64,000 bases of DNA from an uncultured virus (IMG/VR IMGVR_UViG_3300035182_002505) (taxonomy: Duplodnaviria; Heunggongvirae; Uroviricota; Caudoviricetes). How positions within the stretch are numbered: the stretch's first letter is position 1; each line of letters starts with the position of its first letter. The DNA lies in IMG/VR virus record IMGVR_UViG_3300035182_002505; one strand, given 5' to 3'. Both the position numbers and the translations under genes were made by a program. The notes under the pieces are model-generated. The model worked only from the letters and a program-made list of their open reading frames with translations, did not search any database and had not been told where the DNA came from. Positions 2,059 through 20,692 of this stretch are shown here, piece after piece.

Positions 2059-3546
<1,488 letters not shown>

Positions 3547-3672
3547 TCAGGCACCAGGAAAAAAAATGGCCAGCAACCGACAGAGAGAATTCGACCAACC
3601 CACCGCCACATGCAACCAAATTCGTTTCTTTCTTACACCAACCAGCATCCACACCGCGATACCATGCGGGCT

Positions 3673-6600
3673 ATGTCCGTTCGCGAGCCGGTCTGCACCG
3701 TCCCCGTCCTCTATCGCACCGACGTCGACCTCGATGACCTCGAGACCAAGGCCGACATCGTCGACATCGAGCCCGTATTCATCGCCCAGGCCGTCGGCAG
3801 CATCCGAGACATCCGCGTCGCCCTCTTCGCCAAGTACGGCGAGGCCGTCGTCCAGCTCTTGCCCGGCCACCCAGGCCCCGACTTCCTCCTCTGCGAGCCC
3901 TCGGCGACCGCACAGGGGACCGCGCCGCCCGCGCCGCCGCCGGCAGCCCCTGACGACGATGAGAGTCGGATCCCACCGGAGCCCCCTGTACCGCCCAAGG
4001 TCCTCGCCATCCGCACCCACCCCACCCACCAGGCCGACGCCGTCGCCGACCTCGTCCGCCTCGGGCTCGAGCCGAGCGGTGACTACCTCGTAGCGCAGGG
4101 AGACTCCGCCCGTGCCGCCTGGGCTGCCCTTCCGCAGCTCCCCTCGTCCTGGCATGTCCTCGTCCCCGAGTGGATCGCGCAGCCTCCCCTCCGCCAGACG
4201 CCCCTCTCCGCTCACGCCATCGTCACCTCCGGCGGCGTCTGGCTCCACCTGCAGCTCACCTTTGGCTCCGAGGGCATTGCCTGCTCGCGCCGCGACCTGC
4301 TCGAGGCCATCCGAGACGGCCGCCGCTTCGTCCTCCTCTCCGATGGATCCTTCGCCGCCTTCGATGCCCCTGCCATCCGCCATGTCCTCGAGGCCGAAGT
4401 CGAACTCCTCGGGAACGCCGGCGCCGGCGGTCGCCTCCCGGTCTCGCAGAGCGTCTACATCCAGGAAATCCTCCAGCTCATCCCCCCCGAAGCCGTCCAG
4501 CTCACCTCCGGCACCGAAGCCCTCTTCCACAAGCTCTCCGACCTCGATCACGTCCCCGCCGTCAAGCAGCCCCGCGAGTTCCGCGGGAAGCTCAAGCCCT
4601 TCCAGCTCAAAGGCCTGAGCTGGCTCTGGTTCCTCCACACCATGCAGGTCGGAGGTGTGCTGGCAGACGACATGGGCGTAGGCAAGAGTCTGTGTGCAAA
4701 TGCCTACACTATGACCCCATCAGGGTGGCGAAAAATGGGGGATTTGCAAGTCGGTGACCAGGTGATCGGGTCGAATGGTCTCCCGACGACGGTGATCGGC
4801 GTCTACCCCCAGGGCGTTAAGCCGGTTGTTCGGCTCACCACGACGACTGGAGCCTCGGTGGTGTGCTGCAGAGAGCACCTCTGGGCGGTACACACGCCGA
4901 ACGACCGCGTCCGGGGCGGCGCGCTGCGGGTCATGTCCGTCGAAGCCATTCTCGCCAAGGGTCTCAAGGACAAGGCCAAGAACAGGCAGTGGTTCATTCC
5001 TATCGCTAAGGCGATGGAATGCCCGGAGACGACGTTTTCGATCCATCCTTACCTGCTCGGCGCACTCCTGGCCAACGGCCATGGCAAAGTGGTCAACCAT
5101 ACGTGGCCACAAGAGCAACGAGTTCAGATGGCGATGTGCCTACCACAAGGCATGGAGTATCACCAGATCGACAAATGGACATCCAACATTTGCAAGGGTC
5201 GAAACGATAAGCAAAACATCCTTGCCAGAATCGTCAAGGAAATCGGACTAGATGGCCACCTCAGCCATGAAAAGTTCATCCCGCAGGAGTACCTCTTCGG
5301 TTCCGTGCAGCAGCGGATCGACTTGCTCCAGGGGCTGATGGACAACGACGGAACGATCTCGAAGGAGGGTAATGTCATGGAGTACAACACCACCTCTCCG
5401 CAGCTCGCGAAGGATGTCATCCACCTGGTCCGTTCACTTGGGGGAACGGCATGGATGTCCACGAGGGACCCTAAATTCAAGTACAAGGGAGAGACGAAGA
5501 TCGGCAAAGAAGACCACCGGATCCGAATGAATGTTCCCTTCTGCCCCTTCCGTGTGTCGTGGAAGGTGGAGCGCTACAAGCCGCGGACGAAGTACCACGC
5601 TGCGCACGCGATTGACACGATCGAGCCGGCCGGGGAGGAGGAGTGCGTGTGCATCGCGGTGGACGCGCCGGACCACCTGTACGTGACAGAAGACTTCCTC
5701 CTCACGCACAACACGGTCCAGGGGATCGCGCTGATGCAGAAGGTTCAGGAGACCGACGGCAAGGTCAAGGTTCTGATTGTGGCGCCGACGAGTGTGGCGC
5801 CGGAGTGGGTGAAAGCGATCCGGAAATTTGCGCCCAACCTGTCGACGCTGCTCTGGCAGGGCAAGGACCGCAAGGTGTCGCAGGATCAGGCCAAGAAGGT
5901 CGACGTCCTGGTCACGACGTACGCGCTGCTCCGGTACGACCAGGACTTCTTCTGCGCCACGGACGCGGAGTACGACTACGTGATCCTGGACGAGGCTCAG
6001 AACATCAAGAACCCGGCGTCAGCGACGGCGATCGCGGCGAAAAAGATCAAGGCCAAGCACCGCCTGGCCATGTCGGGCACGCCCGTCATGAACTCGCTCG
6101 CCGACTACTGGTCGCTGTTCGACTTCGCGAGCCCGGGGCTCTTCGGGAGTCTGGGAAAGTTCACGGAGACCTTCATCACGCCGGTCCGTGATGGGAGCAA
6201 GGATGCAATGGAGAAGATGAGGCGGCTCGCCAAACCGTTCGTCCTGCGCCGGATGAAGAAAGACGTGGCCACCGAGCTGCCGGAGAAGCAGGAGCTGGTG
6301 CGCATGTGCGAGATGACCCCAAAACAGGCCGCTGTCTACCGCAAGGTCCGGGAGGAGATGGAGAACCTGCTGGCGCAGGACGACGGCGGGAAGAACAGCC
6401 TGACCATCCTGCAAGGAATCACGAAGATGCGGCAGATCTCGCTGGATGCCCGGCTGGTTAGCAAGGGCGACACGACGCTGACGGACGCGGACAGCGGAAA
6501 GCTCGAGGAGCTGCTCGAGATCCTCGACCAGTGCTTGGCCGGGGACCACAAGGTCCTGGTGTTCTCGCAGTTCACGTCGATGCTGGACCTGATCAGCGGG

Positions 6601-7011
6601 GCCATCAAGAAGAAGGGCATCATTCACGAGCTGCTGACCGGGGCGACGCCGAGCGCGGTCCGAGAGGAGCAGGTGGCCCGGTTCCAGCGGGACCCGACAT
6701 GCGCAGTGTTCCTGCTCTCGCTGCAGGCCGCCGGCGTGGGCCTCAACCTGTTCGCCGCCGACACGGTCATCCTCTGCGACCCGTGGTGGAATCAGGCGGT
6801 CGAGGACCAGGCCACGGACCGGGCCCACCGGACCGGGCAGAAGAACCCGGTCACGGTGTACCGACTGATCTCGACGGACACGATCGAGGAGAAGATTATG
6901 GTCCTCAAAGAGAAAAAGAAGACGCTGGCCGAAAACGCTGTGCCTGACGACGGCATCGGTGATAAGCTGCTCACGCAGGACGAGATCAAATTCCTGCTCT
7001 CGAAGACATGA
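3673..7011 (+). CDS. SNF2-family helicase/ATPase interrupted by an intein
   Basis: LADDMGVGK|T, ILDEAQ, MSGTP, LVFSQF, DPWWN, QATDRAHRTGQ; start chosen from TACCAT-N7-ATG. Confidence 0.93.
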   Translation: MSVREPVCTVPVLYRTDVDLDDLETKADIVDIEPVFIAQAVGSIRDIRVALFAKYGEAVVQLLPGHPGPDFLLCEPSATAQGTAPPAPPPAAPDDDESRIPPEPPVPPKVLAIRTHPTHQADAVADLVRLGLEPSGDYLVAQGDSARAAWAALPQLPSSWHVLVPEWIAQPPLRQTPLSAHAIVTSGGVWLHLQLTFGSEGIACSRRDLLEAIRDGRRFVLLSDGSFAAFDAPAIRHVLEAEVELLGNAGAGGRLPVSQSVYIQEILQLIPPEAVQLTSGTEALFHKLSDLDHVPAVKQPREFRGKLKPFQLKGLSWLWFLHTMQVGGVLADDMGVGKSLCANAYTMTPSGWRKMGDLQVGDQVIGSNGLPTTVIGVYPQGVKPVVRLTTTTGASVVCCREHLWAVHTPNDRVRGGALRVMSVEAILAKGLKDKAKNRQWFIPIAKAMECPETTFSIHPYLLGALLANGHGKVVNHTWPQEQRVQMAMCLPQGMEYHQIDKWTSNICKGRNDKQNILARIVKEIGLDGHLSHEKFIPQEYLFGSVQQRIDLLQGLMDNDGTISKEGNVMEYNTTSPQLAKDVIHLVRSLGGTAWMSTRDPKFKYKGETKIGKEDHRIRMNVPFCPFRVSWKVERYKPRTKYHAAHAIDTIEPAGEEECVCIAVDAPDHLYVTEDFLLTHNTVQGIALMQKVQETDGKVKVLIVAPTSVAPEWVKAIRKFAPNLSTLLWQGKDRKVSQDQAKKVDVLVTTYALLRYDQDFFCATDAEYDYVILDEAQNIKNPASATAIAAKKIKAKHRLAMSGTPVMNSLADYWSLFDFASPGLFGSLGKFTETFITPVRDGSKDAMEKMRRLAKPFVLRRMKKDVATELPEKQELVRMCEMTPKQAAVYRKVREEMENLLAQDDGGKNSLTILQGITKMRQISLDARLVSKGDTTLTDADSGKLEELLEILDQCLAGDHKVLVFSQFTSMLDLISGAIKKKGIIHELLTGATPSAVREEQVARFQRDPTCAVFLLSLQAAGVGLNLFAADTVILCDPWWNQAVEDQATDRAHRTGQKNPVTVYRLISTDTIEEKIMVLKEKKKTLAENAVPDDGIGDKLLTQDEIKFLLSKT
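4687..5712 (+). mobile_element. 342-aa intein with LAGLIDADG-type endonuclease, class 3 signature
   Basis: Inserted between Walker A K and T; starts SLC, ends THN/T; EHLW, CVCIAV, LLQGLMDNDG; lower GC. Confidence 0.92.
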
Positions 7012-12982: not shown

Positions 12983-13855
12983 ATGACCGCCACGATCCTA
13001 GTCGACGCTTCTGCCATCAAAAAGCAGACTTTCGGGCCCACCGAGGACTGCCCCACCAGCGTACCATCGGTCTGCGAGTTGGCCACCCAGCGGGGTGATT
13101 GCATACGCCCTTGGCAAATTGGGGTCTGCCAGCCGCTGGTAGGAGACCGCTGGGGCGAGTGGGTCGACAAGGCTCACGACGCGGTCCGAGAGAACGTCTT
13201 CTTGACGATGCGCAACACGCCTTGCCAGGGTAGCGGCACATTCGACATGAACCTCCACTTTGCCTACGTGAGCCAGATGTTTCAGAACCCCGATGGATGC
13301 AGGCGGCAACGCAGAGTTATTCTGTCTGTCGCATCGCCAGGTCACATCGCCGACATCCTCAGTGCCTCGACGAGCGAGGATCTGATGTTCGAGATTATAC
13401 ATCCCTTTTACCAGACCGACGAACGTCGCAGGTCGAGGCACGACTGCAACGATTGGATGAGGCGGCAAGAGATGCAAAAGAGCGTCTACCACAGGATCAT
13501 GGTGGCCAAGCAATACAAGTCAGATCTGATGAATCACCGCATCAAGTGCCCGAACAGCCTTGGAAGTCACCGCGTGGGCGAGACCATGATGTTCCTCGAA
13601 TATCTCGACGACGCCTTGCCCGGCATCGTCACCGACCCGCCGCACCAACTGAAGGTTGAACTGGCAGATCCGAACAAGACGGTCGAAGAAATAGAAGAGA
13701 TCGTCAAGTACATGCCAGCTCATCAAAGGTGGAGGGGGATCGAGTACCTGCGTGAGCAGGTAGAGCACTTCGCGCTCTTCCAGCTCGAGGACCCCGGCTT
13801 CGAGAACAGGCTTCTGCTGCAGCAGCAACTTGCCCGCGAGCCCTACAACCGCTGA
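12983..13855 (+). CDS. Hypothetical protein
   Basis: 290-aa ORF with coding-like composition. Confidence 0.55.
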   Translation: MTATILVDASAIKKQTFGPTEDCPTSVPSVCELATQRGDCIRPWQIGVCQPLVGDRWGEWVDKAHDAVRENVFLTMRNTPCQGSGTFDMNLHFAYVSQMFQNPDGCRRQRRVILSVASPGHIADILSASTSEDLMFEIIHPFYQTDERRRSRHDCNDWMRRQEMQKSVYHRIMVAKQYKSDLMNHRIKCPNSLGSHRVGETMMFLEYLDDALPGIVTDPPHQLKVELADPNKTVEEIEEIVKYMPAHQRWRGIEYLREQVEHFALFQLEDPGFENRLLLQQQLAREPYNR

Positions 13856-13859
13856 CCTC

Positions 13860-14439
13860 TGCGCACCGCCGTCAGGATGGCCACTGGCGGGAAGGACCGC
13901 GGCGCCGAGCAGAGCTGCGCTCCAAGAGCCGACAAAGATCAGAATGTGCAGCGGGCGGATCGCGATGTACTGGACGGCGGGGTTGCGGTCGGCGAGGCAG
14001 GCGTCGAAGGCCCCGATGTCGCTGAAGTCCATCCCGCCCGACTCGTAGTGCAGGAGAGCCTCCTCGTCCATGGCGCACCGGCGCTGGAAAGGTGGACCTT
14101 GGCGTGGGTGTCCGCCGGCGCGCCGCTGGCGATCTCGACGATCTCCTCGGTGAGACCTGCGTACAGCTCGACGTTGAAGACCCGGGCATCGATCCGCGCC
14201 ATCATTCCCTGCATGCGGCTGGTCTTGGCCTTGAGCGGCAGGACCGGCGCCCGGAGCCAGGCGGCCATCTCGCCGTGCTTGCGGTCGATCTCCTTGAGCA
14301 GCTCGGGCAGGGTCTTCTTCCTGGCCTCGATCAGGCTGTTACCCTCGGTCGACTTCATCGAGCAGGTGCTGCGCAAGGAAAACGGCGCCGAACCGGTACA
14401 GCCGACGACAGACGACCCGAGCGACGCGTCATCGACCAT
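13860..14439 (-). pseudogene. Hypothetical gene with 1-nt frameshift near 14089 (ends approximate)
   Basis: GC3-biased frame switches from ..AKVHL to FQRRCAMDEE.. at CAC CTT TCC. Confidence 0.4.
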
Positions 14440-14456
14440 GTGATCGCCGAGGGGGT

Positions 14457-14576
14457 GATGGCCTGATTTGAGGCCGAGTGGCCGGATTTGAACCGCAGTG
14501 GCCTGGTTTCCCTGCCGGTGGCCTGTTCTCACCCCCAGTGGCCTGATTTCAAATCCGGCCACCAAATCAGGCCACT
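14457..14576. repeat. Left-end array of RGTGGCCTGATTT: 5 direct copies at 20-bp period plus 2 inverted
   Basis: Copies at 14457, 14477, 14497, 14517, 14537; inverted at 14551-14563 and 14564-14576. Confidence 0.95.
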
Positions 14577-14622
14577 CTGACGCACCCCTCCCAGAGCACA
14601 CGCGACCCACCCGCCGCACCCC

Positions 14623-14994
14623 TCAGCGCGACCCACCCCTGCGCTTCGTGACCGACACCGGCTCCTCCGTGTGCGTCACGACACCACGCAGCATCGCCAG
14701 GACAACTCGCCGTGTCGACGGCGGCACACTCCGTAGCATCTGCGTCGCTTCGCTCAGCCATCCCTCGTCCTCCGTGCTCCCCACCAGCGCGTCGAGCGAC
14801 GTCCCGAACACACGCGCCAGCGACACCAGCACCGGCACCGCGGGCATCCGCTCGCCTCGCTCCAGCATGCCCACGTAGGCCATTGACAGATCGAGGTGCT
14901 CCGCCAGCGCTTCCTGCGACCACCCGCGCGCCAGTCGGTGGAGTCGGATCGATGCGCCAAGAGCGGCCTGCAACGCTTCCTCGTCCTCTGGCAT
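14623..14994 (-). CDS. XRE/Cro-C1 HTH regulator
   Basis: IRLHRLARGWSQEALAEHLDLSMAYVGMLERGERMP. Confidence 0.9.
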   Translation of the reverse strand: MPEDEEALQAALGASIRLHRLARGWSQEALAEHLDLSMAYVGMLERGERMPAVPVLVSLARVFGTSLDALVGSTEDEGWLSEATQMLRSVPPSTRRVVLAMLRGVVTHTEEPVSVTKRRGGSR

Positions 14995-15145
14995 AGCCCA
15001 CAAAAACCAGCGTTCCGTGAGTGGCGCTATCAACGGACTATTGCTTTGTCACCACTTACAGTAGGTGTCCTTTTGTGACCACATTATCGCCCGTGGCCAG
15101 GGTGGCCCCGACGCGCTGAGGTGGGCCTTAGCTGGGAGAACGGAC

Positions 15146-16414
15146 ATGAAAACTCGTTATTTGAGGGGGATCGTGAGCATGGGCGCGGTGGTGTCGCTGC
15201 TCGTCGTGGCGTGCAGTTCCGCCAGTGGTCCTCCATCCGACGAAACCCCGGTGCCGCAGCAGTCCTGCACCGGTTGCACCGACTCGTTCGACTATTCCAC
15301 CTGTCGACCCATCGCGACGCAGAACAACAACAACTGCGGGTCAGGCGGCCGGCTCTGCCAGGCGTGTGACGCCGGGCAGATGTGCCAGGGCGGCGAGTGC
15401 GTGGTGGACCAGTTGGTCTGCTCCAAGTTCACCTGCCCCACGGGTTGCTGCAACGGCAACACCTGCGTGCCCTACGAGGCGCAGACCGATGCTTCGTGCG
15501 GCCTGAGCGCCATGTGCAAGCCCTGCGATCCAGGGCTGACCTGCCAGTTCGGGACGTGCGCGGCACCACCCGCGACGTGTGATGCTTCAACCTGTTCGGG
15601 GTGCTGCGATGGCACGACCTGCGTGCTCATCTCCTCGGAGAACGCCGGTTCGTGCGGCAAGTTCGGTGCGGTCTGCGGCGCATGTCCTCTGGGCCAGGAC
15701 TGCGTCAATGGCACCTGCCAGAAGGGCAGTGCGGGATGCTCGCCCGCGACCTGCACCGGATGCTGCCAGGGCGACACCTGCGTGACGACCGCATCGCAGA
15801 CCGATGCCTCGTGCGGGAAGGGTGGCGCGAGTTGCAGCGCGTGCAGCGCCGGCCACGCGTGCTCCGCGGGGGTGTGCTCGACCAAGAGCACGAGCTGCTC
15901 GCCGTCGTCGTGTGGTGGCGGATGCTGCGACGGAACCAACTGCCGCACGGACCTGTCGTGGGACTCGTGCAGCGCGGGTGGAACCGCCTGCCTCTCGTGC
16001 GACCCGATGGCGCTCTGCACGAAGCCTGGGAGTTGCGACAACGGCCAGTGGGACCCGAACGCGCTGATCGACCTGTACATCGAGGCGTACAGCGTGTCGG
16101 AGGCGCAGTGCTCGGACCCGATCGGCAAGCCGGACCCGAAGATCACGTTCACGATCGGTGGTCAGTCGTACCCGTCGGGGACGTGCAACGACGCGTACTC
16201 GTGCACGTTTACTCCGGCGTGGAAGATCCCGAACGTGACGCTGGCGCAGTTCAAGTCGGGCGGGGTGAAGTTCACGGTGGTGGACGTGGACGAGACGGTG
16301 GACGATCCGTGCTGGAGCGGGAGTCTGTCGGTGCCGGTGAGGAACTTCTCGTCGCTGTTGCTCAAGCCCGGGGACGGCAGCCTGACGTACCACGTCCGCC
16401 CCGCTGGCTTCTGA
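15146..16414 (+). CDS. Cys-rich repeat lipoprotein with C2-like C-terminal domain
   Basis: Lipobox LVVAC; ~5 CxGCCxGxTC..SCG..C..C repeats; DPIGKPDP..VVDVDETVDD. Confidence 0.75.
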   Translation: MKTRYLRGIVSMGAVVSLLVVACSSASGPPSDETPVPQQSCTGCTDSFDYSTCRPIATQNNNNCGSGGRLCQACDAGQMCQGGECVVDQLVCSKFTCPTGCCNGNTCVPYEAQTDASCGLSAMCKPCDPGLTCQFGTCAAPPATCDASTCSGCCDGTTCVLISSENAGSCGKFGAVCGACPLGQDCVNGTCQKGSAGCSPATCTGCCQGDTCVTTASQTDASCGKGGASCSACSAGHACSAGVCSTKSTSCSPSSCGGGCCDGTNCRTDLSWDSCSAGGTACLSCDPMALCTKPGSCDNGQWDPNALIDLYIEAYSVSEAQCSDPIGKPDPKITFTIGGQSYPSGTCNDAYSCTFTPAWKIPNVTLAQFKSGGVKFTVVDVDETVDDPCWSGSLSVPVRNFSSLLLKPGDGSLTYHVRPAGF

Positions 16415-17047
16415 CCCAACGCAGGCATCGCAGCGGAGGCGGTCGGTAGCTGCGCCAGGCCAAGAGTGGGAGGGGTGGGCAGCCACCACCGGAGAGCCAA
16501 ATTCGTCCGTGTGTGCGACATCGGCGGGCCGGTCATACCGCTGGCAACCATGGTCCGCCTCATAATGAGTGTCACTCATGTTCCGGGAGGACAGTGGCAG
16601 GAGGCAACGCCTTTTCCCTCGTCGAGCGAGACGGACTTGTCATAGCGCGCGTGGCAAAATCGTCAGTCTCTGCGGTGGGAGACTCAACATCCGAGGGGGA
16701 AGATGTCGAGTTGTGAAGTCGGCACATCTGGTGCATCATCGACGATGATGTGCCTGTTTCCCAGGCAAGTCCTTCTGGGTCGGTGGCGAACCGACCTCCG
16801 AAAGGCTTGCGAGACCTGATGGTCAGGGAACCAGGAACAACATCTTTCGGAGCACTTCTTAGATTATTCCCGCAAAAAACCGTGACGGACAACGAACTCT
16901 AGCTATGACAATTTGTCGAAGAGAAGAGATCGTTGATCTTGTTGGCGCAACTTGCGGAACTACCTTACTGTTCGCGCGAAACTTGCTGGTCCCCACCACC
17001 CATGGTGATCAGCAACTCCCAAGTTACCCACACGATTGGGACAACCC

Positions 17048-17608
17048 ATGAAAAACGATCGTCTCGCAAACACCGTCCTGTATCTCCTTGCTGGCTGCCC
17101 TGACGCCGGCCTGACGAAGTTGCTGAAGCTGCTCTACTTCGCCGACTACACTCACTACCGCGAGCACCTGACCACCATCACCGGGGCTACCTACGTCGCC
17201 CTTGAGCGCGGTCCCGTGCTCGATGGCTACGAGGAGGAGCTTGACTCGTTGGAGCGCCGGGGGTTCTTGGCCATCCGCGACGTTCCCGTCTTCGGGCACG
17301 AGAAGCCGAAGAAAGAGTACATGCGGCTTGGTGCGCCAGACCCGGACGCCTTCAACGAGTCCGAGATTGCCACGCTGGACGAAGTCTTGCTGAAGTACGG
17401 CAGACAGAGCGGGGTGGCGTTGAGCAAGCTCACTCACGAAGAGTCGGCTCCGTGGGAGCACGTCTGGGACCCGAGCGCCCCTGGTGCGGTCATCCCGTAT
17501 GCTCTGTGGCGGTGGCTCGACAACATGGCCAGCGAGCGGGACGTGAAAACGGCACAGGCACGGCGTGCGGCGGCTGCGGCGACCCAGGTCGACGCAGATA
17601 TTCACTGA
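17048..17608 (+). CDS. Panacea/SocA (DUF4065, GepA-like) antitoxin
   Basis: TKLLKLLYFAD, GPV, LSKLTH..PW motifs. Confidence 0.85.
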   Translation: MKNDRLANTVLYLLAGCPDAGLTKLLKLLYFADYTHYREHLTTITGATYVALERGPVLDGYEEELDSLERRGFLAIRDVPVFGHEKPKKEYMRLGAPDPDAFNESEIATLDEVLLKYGRQSGVALSKLTHEESAPWEHVWDPSAPGAVIPYALWRWLDNMASERDVKTAQARRAAAAATQVDADIH

Positions 17609-17934
17609 TGGCTGGCCGCAGATCGGTAGTAAAACGGACCAACGCATTCGATGACTGTGTGACCGCGCTTGAGGCGTCTTTCCCTGGCGTAAGACGCAGC
17701 GTGGACGACTTTATCGAGGCCCTTCGGATCGGCGGCCCCAATCTGGCTACACAAACGTTCGATCAAGGGAGTGGGCGTCAACACGTTCATTCTGTCGACG
17801 ACCCAACGCTTGGAAGCGCAGGACGTTCAAAATTCGGGATAACGTACTCGGAGGGGCCCCCAGTAACTGGGCCCAACTCCCAGATAACCCACGTCTTCGT
17901 GGTCGAAGACATTTGGCTTCGAGAGATGAGGTAG
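17608..17934 (+). CDS. Putative toxin partner of Panacea (RelE-like size)
   Basis: TGATG coupling to antitoxin, 108 aa, lower GC. Confidence 0.5.
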   Translation: MAGRRSVVKRTNAFDDCVTALEASFPGVRRSVDDFIEALRIGGPNLATQTFDQGSGRQHVHSVDDPTLGSAGRSKFGITYSEGPPVTGPNSQITHVFVVEDIWLREMR

Positions 17935-17938
17935 TCTC

Positions 17939-18895
17939 CTAGCCTCCATTTGCGCCACCAGGGATGAGGCGGAGGACAGTGCCACCTCCTGTCCGCCGTG
18001 CAGCCCCGGTAGGAGCCTCCAGGGCCATGGGATGAGGCTCCCCGGGGACTTGATTAGGAGCGGGCGGGGCGATCAAGGCCGCGACGATCAGTTCCTCGAT
18101 GCTCCAGACGTGATCCGTGAGCCCGGCCTCCATCGCGGGCGTCACCCTGATCGCCTCGTGCACGCGACAGAGGTTGTAGTGCGCGAAGTGCAGCGCCACC
18201 GCCGCGCGTAGGTTCCTCAGCTTCTTCGAGAACCCGTTGCACTGCCTCGTGAACCTCCGCATCGACATCCGCATCGTGAGGTTCTGTCGCTCGACGTGGT
18301 TCGTCGTCGAGACCCGCAGGTTCGGCTGTCCGACCACCGCACGCTTCGTCACCCCGTAGACCGCTCCAGGAACGAACCTCGGCTGTCCTGGCTCCAGCGT
18401 CGCCCCTTCGCACTGCTTCTTCACCTGCGCGTAGTCCACGTCCACGCCGAACGCCTGGTCGATCGCGTCGATGTAGGTGATCAACGAGTCCGTCGTGATG
18501 TGCGGCCGGTTCAGCACGCGCTGACGAAGATCCTTCAGAAACAGGTTCGCGACCTCGCTGGTGCGCTTGTCCGTGCGCCAACTCACGACGAGTCGTGTCT
18601 GCGGATCGAAGGCCACCCAGGTGTACTGGTCGCCGTATTCTTCTGAATCGGTCTCCGTTAGTTGCGCCTGTTTTTTGCGCACGAAGGACCAGATTTCATC
18701 CAGTTCCAGACGTGAGCAGTTGAGGCCGCGCACCATGCGATCGAGCAGCGCCGCGCATCCCTCGCCGACTTCCACGCCGAGAAACATGATCGTCTGACGG
18801 TTCGCATCGACCATGCGTTCGGTGGCTCGGATGCTGGTTCCGTCGACAAGCGCGGCGATGATCTGCACGCGCTTCTCCATGGGCAGGATGTTCAC
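17939..18895 (-). CDS. IS1-family DDE transposase
   Basis: HTH GTSIRATER; ELDEIW, ITTD, NHVERQNLTMR, FSKK, TPAMEAG. Confidence 0.88.
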   Translation of the reverse strand: MNILPMEKRVQIIAALVDGTSIRATERMVDANRQTIMFLGVEVGEGCAALLDRMVRGLNCSRLELDEIWSFVRKKQAQLTETDSEEYGDQYTWVAFDPQTRLVVSWRTDKRTSEVANLFLKDLRQRVLNRPHITTDSLITYIDAIDQAFGVDVDYAQVKKQCEGATLEPGQPRFVPGAVYGVTKRAVVGQPNLRVSTTNHVERQNLTMRMSMRRFTRQCNGFSKKLRNLRAAVALHFAHYNLCRVHEAIRVTPAMEAGLTDHVWSIEELIVAALIAPPAPNQVPGEPHPMALEAPTGAARRTGGGTVLRLIPGGANGG

Positions 18896-19007
18896 GTTCC
18901 TGGGCCTTTCACGGGCAAAAGGAGGCGTGGCCTGTCTCGGATCACGAGGGCCCAAGACGGCGCGAAGAGGCGGCGGAGGCGAGGTACACCTCCGGCAGCC
19001 CACTGAA

Positions 19008-19051
19008 CTAATGTATACACATTAGAGGGTCAAATCAACGAGCTTGACCCT
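19008..19051. promoter_or_regulatory. Two adjacent dyads between divergent transposase and RHH genes
   Basis: CTAATGT-atac-ACATTAG (19008-19025) and AGGGTCAA-N10-TTGACCCT (19026-19051). Confidence 0.55.
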
Positions 19052-19079
19052 GTTTTTGTGCTGTTCCACGATGGTAGGC

Positions 19080-19322
19080 ATGGCAGCCAGCAAGGTGGTG
19101 AAGCGGCGTAAGTTGGATGAAGATAGAAAAGAGGCGCGCATTGTATTGAGGGTCACGGAGGCACAGAAAGGGGTCCTAGAAGCGGCGGCGAAGGTGAGGG
19201 GCCTGACGCTGTCGTCCTGGGTGCTGACGAGCGCGCTGGAGGCATCTGGAGCGGTGGGCGGTGGTGATGCTCCAGAGTCTACGCCGGCTTTTGATGGGCA
19301 ACGCAGGGTGAAAATGAAGTGA
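19080..19322 (+). CDS. Ribbon-helix-helix protein (DUF1778-like)
   Basis: RIVLRVTEAQKGVLEAAAKVRGLTLSSWV. Confidence 0.75.
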   Translation: MAASKVVKRRKLDEDRKEARIVLRVTEAQKGVLEAAAKVRGLTLSSWVLTSALEASGAVGGGDAPESTPAFDGQRRVKMK

Positions 19323-19470
19323 TTTTTGGAGTAGGCGCGCGCCCGATCCTCGAAATCGTCAATGTGTCAAGAGTGAACATGCTCTCAGGCTCACAAGGTC
19401 GCGAAGGTCGGCAACGCAGTGCGTTGAACAGACGACCATCGGGAGGGTGGGCGAGGGGCGAGCGGGGGCG

Positions 19471-19553
19471 AGTGGCCTGATTTGGAGGAAGGTGGCCTGA
19501 TTTCAGGCGCAGTGGCCTGATTTGACCTTGAGTGGCCTGATCAGGCCACTACC
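19471..19553. repeat. Right-end array: 4 copies at 20-bp period plus terminal inverted copy
   Basis: RGTGGCCTGAT at 19471, 19491, 19511, 19531; last forms palindrome AGTGGCCTGA/TCAGGCCACT. Confidence 0.95.
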
Positions 19554-19608
19554 CCGCCGAGGGGGTCGGCTTGCGCCGCGAGGGGTTCGGCGCGATCATG
19601 CTCCCATC

Positions 19609-19914
19609 ATGCACGCATCTGTCGCCAAATTCGGCCTTCGTTCCTGGGCCATCGGCATCATGGGGTTCATCACGCTGGCAGCGTCCTGCTTGCATGACCC
19701 TGTTCAGCCCAACCCGCCCCCGGTCGCCGGGGCTGACTGCAAGTCGGCCTGCGACCACCTGGCCTCCCTGGGCTGCGAGTTGGCCAAGCCGACCGCGAAA
19801 GGGACAAGCTGCAAAACATGGTGCGAGGCGACTGCAAACAAGCCGGCCGGCATGGACACGGGCTGCGCCGCCGCGGTCCAGACCTGCGCCCAGGCCGACC
19901 GCTGCGGGCGCTGA
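19609..19914 (+). CDS. Small Cys-rich lipoprotein
   Basis: Signal peptide with LAASC lipobox-like site, 8 further Cys. Confidence 0.65.
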   Translation: MHASVAKFGLRSWAIGIMGFITLAASCLHDPVQPNPPPVAGADCKSACDHLASLGCELAKPTAKGTSCKTWCEATANKPAGMDTGCAAAVQTCAQADRCGR

Positions 19915-20019
19915 ACCTCGGGCTTTTCGATTTGGCGGCGTCACCCTGGGCGCGAGACCCTGGCCGGCAGGTCTGCTCGCGAAGCAGCGCGCCCTCGCCG
20001 GTCGAACCCGGTCGAGACG

Positions 20020-20692
20020 GTGCAGGTCCGGCTGGCCGATCCACGGGAGACCCCGACGCCCGCGCAGCGCCTGCTGATCGACCGGCTCCAGGCGATGCTG
20101 CAGCAGGAGGGGGGACAGCCGCATCTGGACCTACCGGGGCTAGCGCTGCATCCTCCTCGCCCGGCACTCAAGCGGGCACTGGTGCGGCTACGTCGAGATC
20201 ATGCCGGGGGACCCGCTCTACCAGCGGGACGAGGACGATCTGCAGTCCGTCTAGGTTCACGGGGGTCTCACGGGCTCAGGTTACCGGAACGGCAAGTGGA
20301 TCCTGGGGTTTGACGCCGGGCACCTGAACGACATCGACCCGAGACGCCTCGAGCTGCACCTGCTGACGCCGGACCTGCGGAACTACTGGAGCGAGTTCCG
20401 CATGATGGCCGAGGCACAGAGGGTGGTCGACCAGGTTGCCGACCAGGGGTCGCTGCTGCTGCCCGAGCCGGAGCCCGAGTCTGACAACCTCGAAGACGCA
20501 GACGAATACGAGTACGGGGTCGACGACGAAGGCGACGATGCGTACCGCGACGATTCGGACGATGCTGGCATCCGTCGGCATCCTCAAGCAGCTCAGGAAA
20601 ATGTTCTCGGACGAACTGGCGACCGATATCCTGTGCGCCGCCCACGAGATTATCCTGTTGCAGGACCCGACGGGGAGGACTGGACTGCCTGA
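20020..20692 (+). pseudogene. Phage-type conserved protein (WCGYV/VHGGLT/GFD motifs), G6 frameshift and two in-frame TAG
   Basis: ..QEG/DSRIWTYRG*RCILLARHSSGHWCGYV..SV*VHGGLT..WILGFDAGH; TAG at 20141 and 20252. Confidence 0.7.

Follow-up and report, generated by a model that had tools for sequence, protein, structure and literature searches.

Do cargo-carrying insertion sequences (ISs) of the IS1 family need several transposase sites at each end, or can such ends arise in a single lineage of a simple-ended family? The question is raised by a 5.1-kb element in a 64,000-nucleotide stretch of DNA from an uncultured virus (IMG/VR record IMGVR_UViG_3300035182_002505; hereafter the window). The element has a single DDE transposase gene, with genes for an XRE-type regulator, a Cys-rich lipoprotein, a Panacea pair and a ribbon-helix-helix (RHH) protein around it, and a short motif from its termini is reiterated inside both ends. 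The original prediction took it as a representative of a class of IS1-type transposons that carry about 4 kb of passengers by means of helically phased multi-site ends. Here we describe the anatomy of the element, its family relationship, the consensus of its ends and the absence of arrays from its relatives, and we consider whether the transposase may bind the reiterated copies and what such binding might do.

Borders and iterated ends of the element

The element is delimited by a direct repeat of 8 bp and by terminal inverted repeats.

14453–19554, 5102 bp: whole element, a transporter IS or unit transposon, delimited by the duplication and the terminal inverted repeats
14445–14452, 8 bp: left copy of the target-site duplication, CGCCGAGG, read directly
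19555–19562, 8 bp: right copy of the target-site duplication, CGCCGAGG, read directly
14453–14472, plus strand: left terminal inverted repeat, GGGTGATGGCCTGATTTGAG, which includes the core copy 14458–14469 and matches the family consensus GGTAGTGnnnnAnTTTGA
19535–19554, minus strand: right terminal inverted repeat, reverse complement GGGTAGTGGCCTGATCAGGC, which includes the core copy 19538–19549

Direct reading bears out the prediction that an 8-bp duplication flanks 14453–19554 and that the ends of the element are paired. The element starts at 14453 with GGGTGATGGCCTGA, and its reverse complement starts at 19554 with GGGTAGTGGCCTGA. A repeat search finds a terminal inverted repeat of 16 nt with 88% complementarity, and the ends are thus imperfect inverted repeats. 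Together with the 8-bp duplication, the ends (G)GGTGATG and (G)GGTAGTG fit the IS1-family form GGnnnTG; the family duplicates 8–9 bp of target according to ISfinder. The ends of E. coli IS1A read GGTAATG and GGTGATG, as the prediction had stated. Judged mainly by the end pattern found across the family (see below), 14453–19554 is one transposed unit. The element does not differ in GC content from the window (62.5% and 64.1%). A promoter and terminator scan finds nothing at the element ends, and an Rfam search of 14000–20000 gives a chance-level match only.

Inside both ends, a core of 12–14 bp, (A)GTGGCCTGATTT(G), is present in seven copies on the left and five on the right.

14458, 14478, 14498, 14518 and 14538, plus strand: left phased cores, found in the search with up to two mismatches; 14458 is the terminal copy
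14478–14549, plus strand: four left subterminal cores in the terminal orientation and at 20-bp spacing, without the GGT tip
14551–14562 and 14564–14575, minus strand: two inverted cores that close the left array (repeat and motif searches)
19472–19543, plus strand: four right phased cores (19472, 19492, 19512 and 19532), inverted relative to the right terminal copy (motif search)
19538–19549, minus strand: right terminal core copy (motif search)

The spacing is exactly 20 bp for five left-end copies and for four on the right, confirming that the terminal motif is reiterated with this period at both ends. When up to two mismatches are allowed, GTGGCCTGATTT has 17 matches in the window against 3.62 expected, a number that none of 100 shuffles reaches, and 12 of the 17 fall in the two element ends. 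At three mismatches the core is no longer enriched (55 matches against 41 expected). A core-like sequence at 18927, upstream of the transposase gene, was set aside because its three mismatches place it at this non-enriched level.

Pairwise comparison of the nine phased 20-nt units gives an identity of 0.88 for the 12 core columns and of 0.35 for those of the spacer, indicating that the units are not fresh tandem duplicates; the core has been kept and the spacers have drifted. The internal copies also depart from the terminal ones at the tip, starting with CGA, GCA, CCG, CCA, AAG or TGA where the terminal copies have GGT.

The phased copies are on the plus strand at both ends. Those on the left have the orientation of the left terminal copy and those on the right oppose the right terminal copy; therefore, the two arrays are direct, not inverted, repeats of each other. 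The original prediction had not mentioned this orientation. The copy at 19532 and the right terminal copy together form an 18-bp palindrome. Folded as single-stranded DNA, the two arrays have z scores of -4.7 and -4.2, but the hairpins are a trivial consequence of each array being closed by inverted copies.

The transposase and its cargo-carrying relatives

17939–18880, minus strand: single-ORF DDE transposase of 313 aa with catalytic residues D61, D131 and E197 (NCBIfam IS1 model, 1.3e-12; hhalign; invariant columns)

This gene is the only transposase gene in the element and consists of one uninterrupted open reading frame (ORF), without the -1 frameshift that joins insA and insB in IS1. Homologues on plasmids that are about 40% identical carry the annotation "IS1 family transposase". 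In a large protein collection all 8000 scored candidates are significant, and many have a precomputed match to PF03400. An hhalign comparison of a 16-member profile of the clade with E. coli InsB gives a probability of 96.3% and an E value of 1.8e-9 over 115 columns, which span the invariant D61, D131 and E197 and match them to the IS1 motifs. The NCBIfam match begins at model position 45, which leaves the zinc-finger region (the first 44 positions) unmatched and apparently missing, and the N-terminal helix-turn-helix (HTH) aligns weakly with the HTH of InsA at residues 53–88 (probability 9%). By profile comparison, the protein is clearly a distant, single-ORF member of the IS1 family. Such single-ORF members are recognised in ISfinder.

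The element shares with E. coli IS1 (IS1A, insA/insB) a DDE catalytic core that is homologous at profile level, ends that start GGT(A/G)(A/G)TG and a short target duplication. IS1, as portrayed in the relevant part of PMC12428005, is 768 bp long and passenger-free; a -1 frameshift joins its two frames, a zinc finger precedes the HTH, and the inverted repeats are single and about 30 bp long. The window element, in contrast, has a single 313-aa ORF without a recognisable zinc-finger region, carries 4 kb of passengers and has iterated ends. A transporter IS is described in the pertinent section of PMC9330008 as an IS-type transposase and inverted repeats that enclose passenger genes. Five genes other than the transposase gene lie between the inverted repeats here. 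Homology and end sequence place the element among IS1-family transporter ISs.

A subclade of the transposases, which includes that of the window element, has a C-terminal extension (17939–18084 in the window, residues ~266–313) with the conserved end motif (L/F)R(V/L)I x GG (R/K), whereas the 274-aa majority lacks it. The extension may be a docking peptide.

To place the arrays in the family, we collected 225 loci with transposase homologues of 39–60% identity (63 from IMG/VR, 80 from metagenomes, 80 from GTDB species genomes and 2 from plasmids). The genome hosts include Alphaproteobacteria, Acidobacteriota, Verrucomicrobiota, Planctomycetota and "Deltaproteobacteria". Up to 6.8 kb on each side of the transposase gene was searched for a perfect 8-bp direct repeat directly next to a 16-nt inverted repeat that starts with GG and matches at 13 or more of 16 positions; the procedure recovers the borders of the window element itself. 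An 8-bp duplication and GGTAGTGnnnnAnTTTGA ends are found at 135 of the 225 loci, corresponding to 133 distinct elements. The other 90 loci, many on short or cut contigs, have no such pair and were left out of the counts.

The ends of the relatives are very uniform, GGTAGTGnnnnAnTTTGA (GGTAGTG...). In the closest relatives (50–56% identity), the inverted-repeat positions held by GTGGCCTGATTT in the window element are occupied by GTGTCCTAATTT. The relatives are 954–5836 bp long (median 3129 bp); 128 of the 133 reach at least 2 kb and two are shorter than 1.5 kb, indicating that passengers, whether on one side of the transposase gene or on both, are the rule in this branch of the IS1 family. Examples from cultured organisms, on plasmids, are a 3370-bp element on Mesorhizobium loti p_1 (duplication CGCTGGTG) and a 2634-bp element in Acidiphilium multivorum (duplication AAGCCGAG). 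Panacea and XRE-type cargo recur among the relatives, and an RHH gene is divergent from the transposase gene in six of them, as it is in the window element.

The relatives thus resemble the window element in the transposase (40–56% identity), the 8-bp duplication, the inverted-repeat consensus and the passengers, but they differ in having simple ends. We counted, for each element, copies of its own terminal 12-mer with up to two mismatches, on either strand and within 260 bp of each end. Exactly one copy per end is found in 127 of the 133 relatives and one extra copy in the remaining six, so that no end has more than two; the same count gives six on the left and five on the right for the window element, against the seven and five cores listed above. 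A count that presupposes no motif, of any 10-mer repeated in the first 200 bp, gives seven and five for the window element and at most three elsewhere (75 distinct elements). An alignment-free autocorrelation over the first 130 bp puts the two window ends in first and second place among 268 ends for periodicity, both at lag 20. In addition, searches of IMG/VR contigs and GTDB species genomes did not find the array pattern (two cores spaced by 8 nt), and GTGGCCTGATTT was not found in the 63 IMG/VR loci.

A scan for phased repeats (10-mers with up to one mismatch, at least three units, lag 17–25) reports chains in 6 of the 63 viral loci and in three later loci. Those of L018, L026, L048 and L082 were rejected as end arrays, as they lie outside the defined elements. 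In L007, L032, L040 and L080 the ends are undefined and the chains are 2.4–3.4 kb from the transposase gene. The chain of L095 was likewise rejected; it is an internal, operator-like array of TTGTCAAG with a spacing of about 20 bp.

The L095 array (L095:5860–5975) lies between a cargo HATPase/DUF4325 gene and the transposase gene, is unrelated to the ends of L095, and is probably an operator for a cargo regulator.

The scan of homologue flanks that the original prediction called for thus has a divided outcome: 8-bp duplications are present (135 of 225 loci), and ends with a motif repeated at 20 bp are not (0 of 133 elements). A class of IS1-type transposons that need helically phased multi-site ends to mobilise long cargo is very improbable. 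In its favour, the window element, at 5102 bp, is one of the longest in the family, whose median is 3129 bp. However, none of the 128 relatives of 2 kb or more, the longest of 5836 bp included, has an array. Homologous elements without arrays carry cargo; the prediction had itself listed homologues without such ends as a finding that would refute it, and its class-level claim fails. As relatives of up to 5.8 kb have plain single repeats, extra sites are not needed for passengers. On this comparison of ends, the arrays are peculiar to the window element, a single lineage. A narrow lineage with arrays may exist among the nearest homologues (P0002, P0007, P0009, P0013 and P0064; 52–60% identity), which share the C-terminal extension of the window transposase.

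The cargo of 74 related elements (L001–L143; 267 ORFs searched with Pfam) is rich in defence-like and toxin-antitoxin-like genes. An XRE-HTH protein with Peptidase_M78 is found in about 11 elements, P63C in eight, GmrSD type IV restriction in six, Panacea antitoxin, DNA methylase and a ClpP/SDH-type protease in four each, NYN in three, Fic and the YhaV toxin in two each, and a DndB-like protein in one.

Possible roles of the internal copies

We propose that the window element is a transporter IS of the single-ORF IS1 branch that would have inserted by DDE transposition, with an 8-bp duplication, between two divergent genes. The iterated unit is the inner portion of the terminal inverted repeat (family positions ~4–17), the predicted target of the N-terminal HTH of the transposase, and cleavage would take place at the GGT tip, which the internal copies do not have. 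Only the outermost copy at each end could therefore be a substrate for cleavage. The internal copies are probably auxiliary transposase-binding sites, a role we predict from their sequence. In IS1, InsA and InsAB' use a zinc finger and an HTH to bind the inverted repeats, and the inner part of the terminal repeat is bound by the N-terminal domain common to InsA and the transposase, as stated in the part of PMC12428005 that concerns binding. All relatives conserve equivalents of the inner repeat irrespective of cargo, which makes the transposase the most economical candidate binding protein.

Two effects of such binding can be envisaged, between which we divide our expectation roughly evenly. 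Extra sites may help, by recruiting or ordering transposase for synapsis, perhaps offsetting the imperfect terminal repeats, which match at 13 of 16 positions. Alternatively, they may restrain, by holding or titrating transposase away from the tips and so damping transposition. The inverted copies at the right end fit a restraining role at least as well as a helping one. In either case, the arrays would have arisen within the lineage of the window element and would not be required for carrying cargo.

The proximity of two regulator genes to the arrays suggests another binder. The arrays could be operator- or centromere-like iterons for a passenger protein, the RHH protein at the right array or the XRE protein at the left one; the RHH gene lies within 150 bp and the XRE gene within 50 bp. 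RHH proteins of partition and repressor systems bind short direct-repeat arrays, which counts for this explanation, as does the internal TTGTCAAG array of L095, similarly spaced and unrelated to the ends. However, the repeated core is the inner terminal inverted repeat, which the 133 relatives conserve whatever they carry. Arrays are absent from the six relatives in which an RHH gene adjoins the transposase gene and from L056, the sole relative with an XRE-like ORF, and searches with Pfam and NCBIfam find no partition NTPase in the element. We therefore regard iterons for a passenger protein as quite unlikely.

Arrays of transposase sites inside transposon ends have precedents in other families. 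As described in the section of PMC8649781 on transposon ends, Tn7, Tn5090/Tn5053 and Tn552 have arrays of ~20-bp transposase sites inside both ends, which differ between left and right and of which the outermost lies next to the cleaved tip. Phage Mu has subterminal arrays of transposase sites that follow the same logic, according to the corresponding part of PMC2909936. The likeness, at sequence level, is in the seven and five core copies at the ends of the window element; Tn7-like elements also resemble it in that their cargo often includes defence genes. They and Mu differ from it in using a TnsB or MuA transposase with an accessory ATPase, neither of which is found among the six ORFs of the element (Pfam, NCBIfam). 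Moreover, its internal sites at the right end are inverted relative to the terminal site, and its 20-bp spacing is strict. The resemblance to Tn7 and Mu that had been predicted thus extends to the presence of arrays and not to their orientation. By sequence, the element stands outside the Tn7 and Mu families and resembles them in its arrays only. In the IS21 family, too, the ends internally reiterate a portion of the terminal repeat; IS21 encodes IstA and IstB, and the window element has no such genes. It is conceivable, though we hold it doubtful, that asymmetric multi-site ends like those of Tn7 and Mu evolved independently in one lineage, with tipless sites in a strict 20-bp register that would either drive complex assembly or act as a sink for transposase.

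Several points weigh against an IS1-family transposon with auxiliary sites. The transposase scores below the cut-offs of both family models, with 48.1 bits against 100 for NCBIfam transpos_IS1 (NF033558; E 1.3e-12) and 21.7 bits against 24.1 for Pfam PF03400. The right-end copies are inverted relative to the terminal copy, an orientation not known for most Tn7 and Mu sites. A single array-bearing element is known among IMG/VR, the GTDB genomes and the delineated relatives. Its two terminal repeats agree at 13 of 16 positions and those of the relatives usually at 16 of 16, so the element could be decaying. Finally, no empty site or second insertion was seen in the sequencing runs (see below), and the mobility of this copy is therefore deduced from the family pattern alone.

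The arrays could instead be functionless relics of aberrant end duplication, through repeated abortive or nested events, in an immobile copy. The uniqueness of the element and its less perfect terminal repeats are consistent with this explanation. So are the right end, which is a palindromic junction of GTGGCCTGA and TCAGGCCAC, the fixation of the insertion, which is identical in four runs, and the size of the unit, since core and spacer (12 + 8 bp) equal one core and one duplication length. However, the disparity between core (88%) and spacer (35%) identity is not expected if duplicated units decay neutrally, the 20-bp register holds exactly over five and four units at two separate ends, and the transposase ORF is intact with its D, D and E. 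We consider relics unlikely and favour auxiliary transposase sites.

A literature search, which did not cover Siguier et al. 2009, found no description of iterated ends in IS1-family elements or of this cargo-carrying clade. That review reportedly deals with IS1, IS1595 and passenger genes. ISfinder already lists long IS1-family members with passenger genes, and the cargo-carrying habit of IS1 members is probably known in outline. Public records label the relatives merely "IS1 family transposase". The comparison exposes a large and taxonomically broad set of IS1-family elements that routinely carry 1–5 kb of cargo, much of which resembles defence or toxin-antitoxin genes. Provided that the internal copies are genuine transposase sites, complex multi-site ends can arise quickly in a simple-ended IS family, and the 133 single-ended relatives are matched natural controls for testing what extra sites do. 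Should the lineage indeed have built multi-site ends in the Tn7 and Mu manner, the element would be a natural intermediate for how complex transposon ends arise from simple ones.

Passenger genes, insertion site and carrier genome

Profile matches and the reading of a lipobox confirm one internal DDE transposase with cargo on both sides (XRE, Cys-rich lipoprotein, Panacea pair and RHH).

14623–15033, minus strand: XRE-type HTH regulator, 136 aa (Pfam HTH_3, 3.2e-14; PHROG transcriptional regulator)
15146–16414, plus strand: Cys-rich repeat lipoprotein, 422 aa (signal peptide, LVVAC lipobox, Cys repeats)
16415–17047, no strand assigned: about 630 bp without a convincing gene (only an ORF of low GC3, the GC content at third codon positions; no Rfam match)
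17048–17608, plus strand: Panacea (SocA-like) antitoxin-domain protein, 186 aa (Pfam PF13274, 9.1e-18)
17608–17934, plus strand: 108-aa partner gene that overlaps the Panacea stop codon (ATGA), a candidate toxin
19080–19322, plus strand: RHH protein, 80 aa, divergent from the transposase gene (Pfam TacA1, 1.2e-7; NikA-like)

The 108-aa partner has no family match in Pfam, NCBIfam or PADLOC, and an atlas gives a weak lead to RelE/ParE. PADLOC finds only generic HTH matches for the XRE protein. The lipoprotein has no family match in Pfam, NCBIfam or PHROG. Its Cys-rich repeats are about 156 bp, or about 52 residues, long, and they are followed by a separate, Cys-poor domain in the last ~120 residues that has no family match either. 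Cys-rich repeat lipoproteins of this type are typical of Myxococcota, a hint that the host may belong there. The 200-bp gap between the divergent transposase and RHH genes (18881–19079) contains the inverted repeats CTAATGT-ATAC-ACATTAG and GGGTCAA-N10-TTGACCC, which are possible operators.

Two divergent genes flank the element, which lies 5 bp upstream of the start codon of 13942–14439 (minus strand). We compared contigs from four sequencing runs with positions 13800–20200. The insertion is present in all and identical, and both junctions are bridged. The empty allele proposed in the original prediction was not found in these contigs, nor was a second copy; run contigs cannot reveal rare variants and give no evidence against rare empty alleles. 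Two listed contig joints have sides of 21 letters that do not match the element borders, and no junction to another insertion site is among the contig loose ends listed for the four runs. The flanking protein (13942–14439) has no relatives among IMG/VR contigs, and consequently no uninterrupted relative of the carrier genome was obtained.

The XRE gene reads through the left array toward this flanking gene, and read-through from the element may now drive it. A 226-aa ORF (13939–14619, minus strand) runs in frame from inside the element, across the left array and into the flanking gene.

The window resembles a phage or another large mobile genome of that sort. Its proteins include collagen-repeat tail fibres, an SNF2 helicase with a LAGLIDADG insert, a DnaG primase, several DNA methyltransferases, an endolysin-like protein and a serine recombinase. 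The SNF2-type helicase (3418–7008, plus strand; 1197 aa) probably contains an intein: a LAGLIDADG-like segment is inserted in it, and its intein-type PHROG matches are to those parts of terminase, primase and helicase-loader families that bear inteins.

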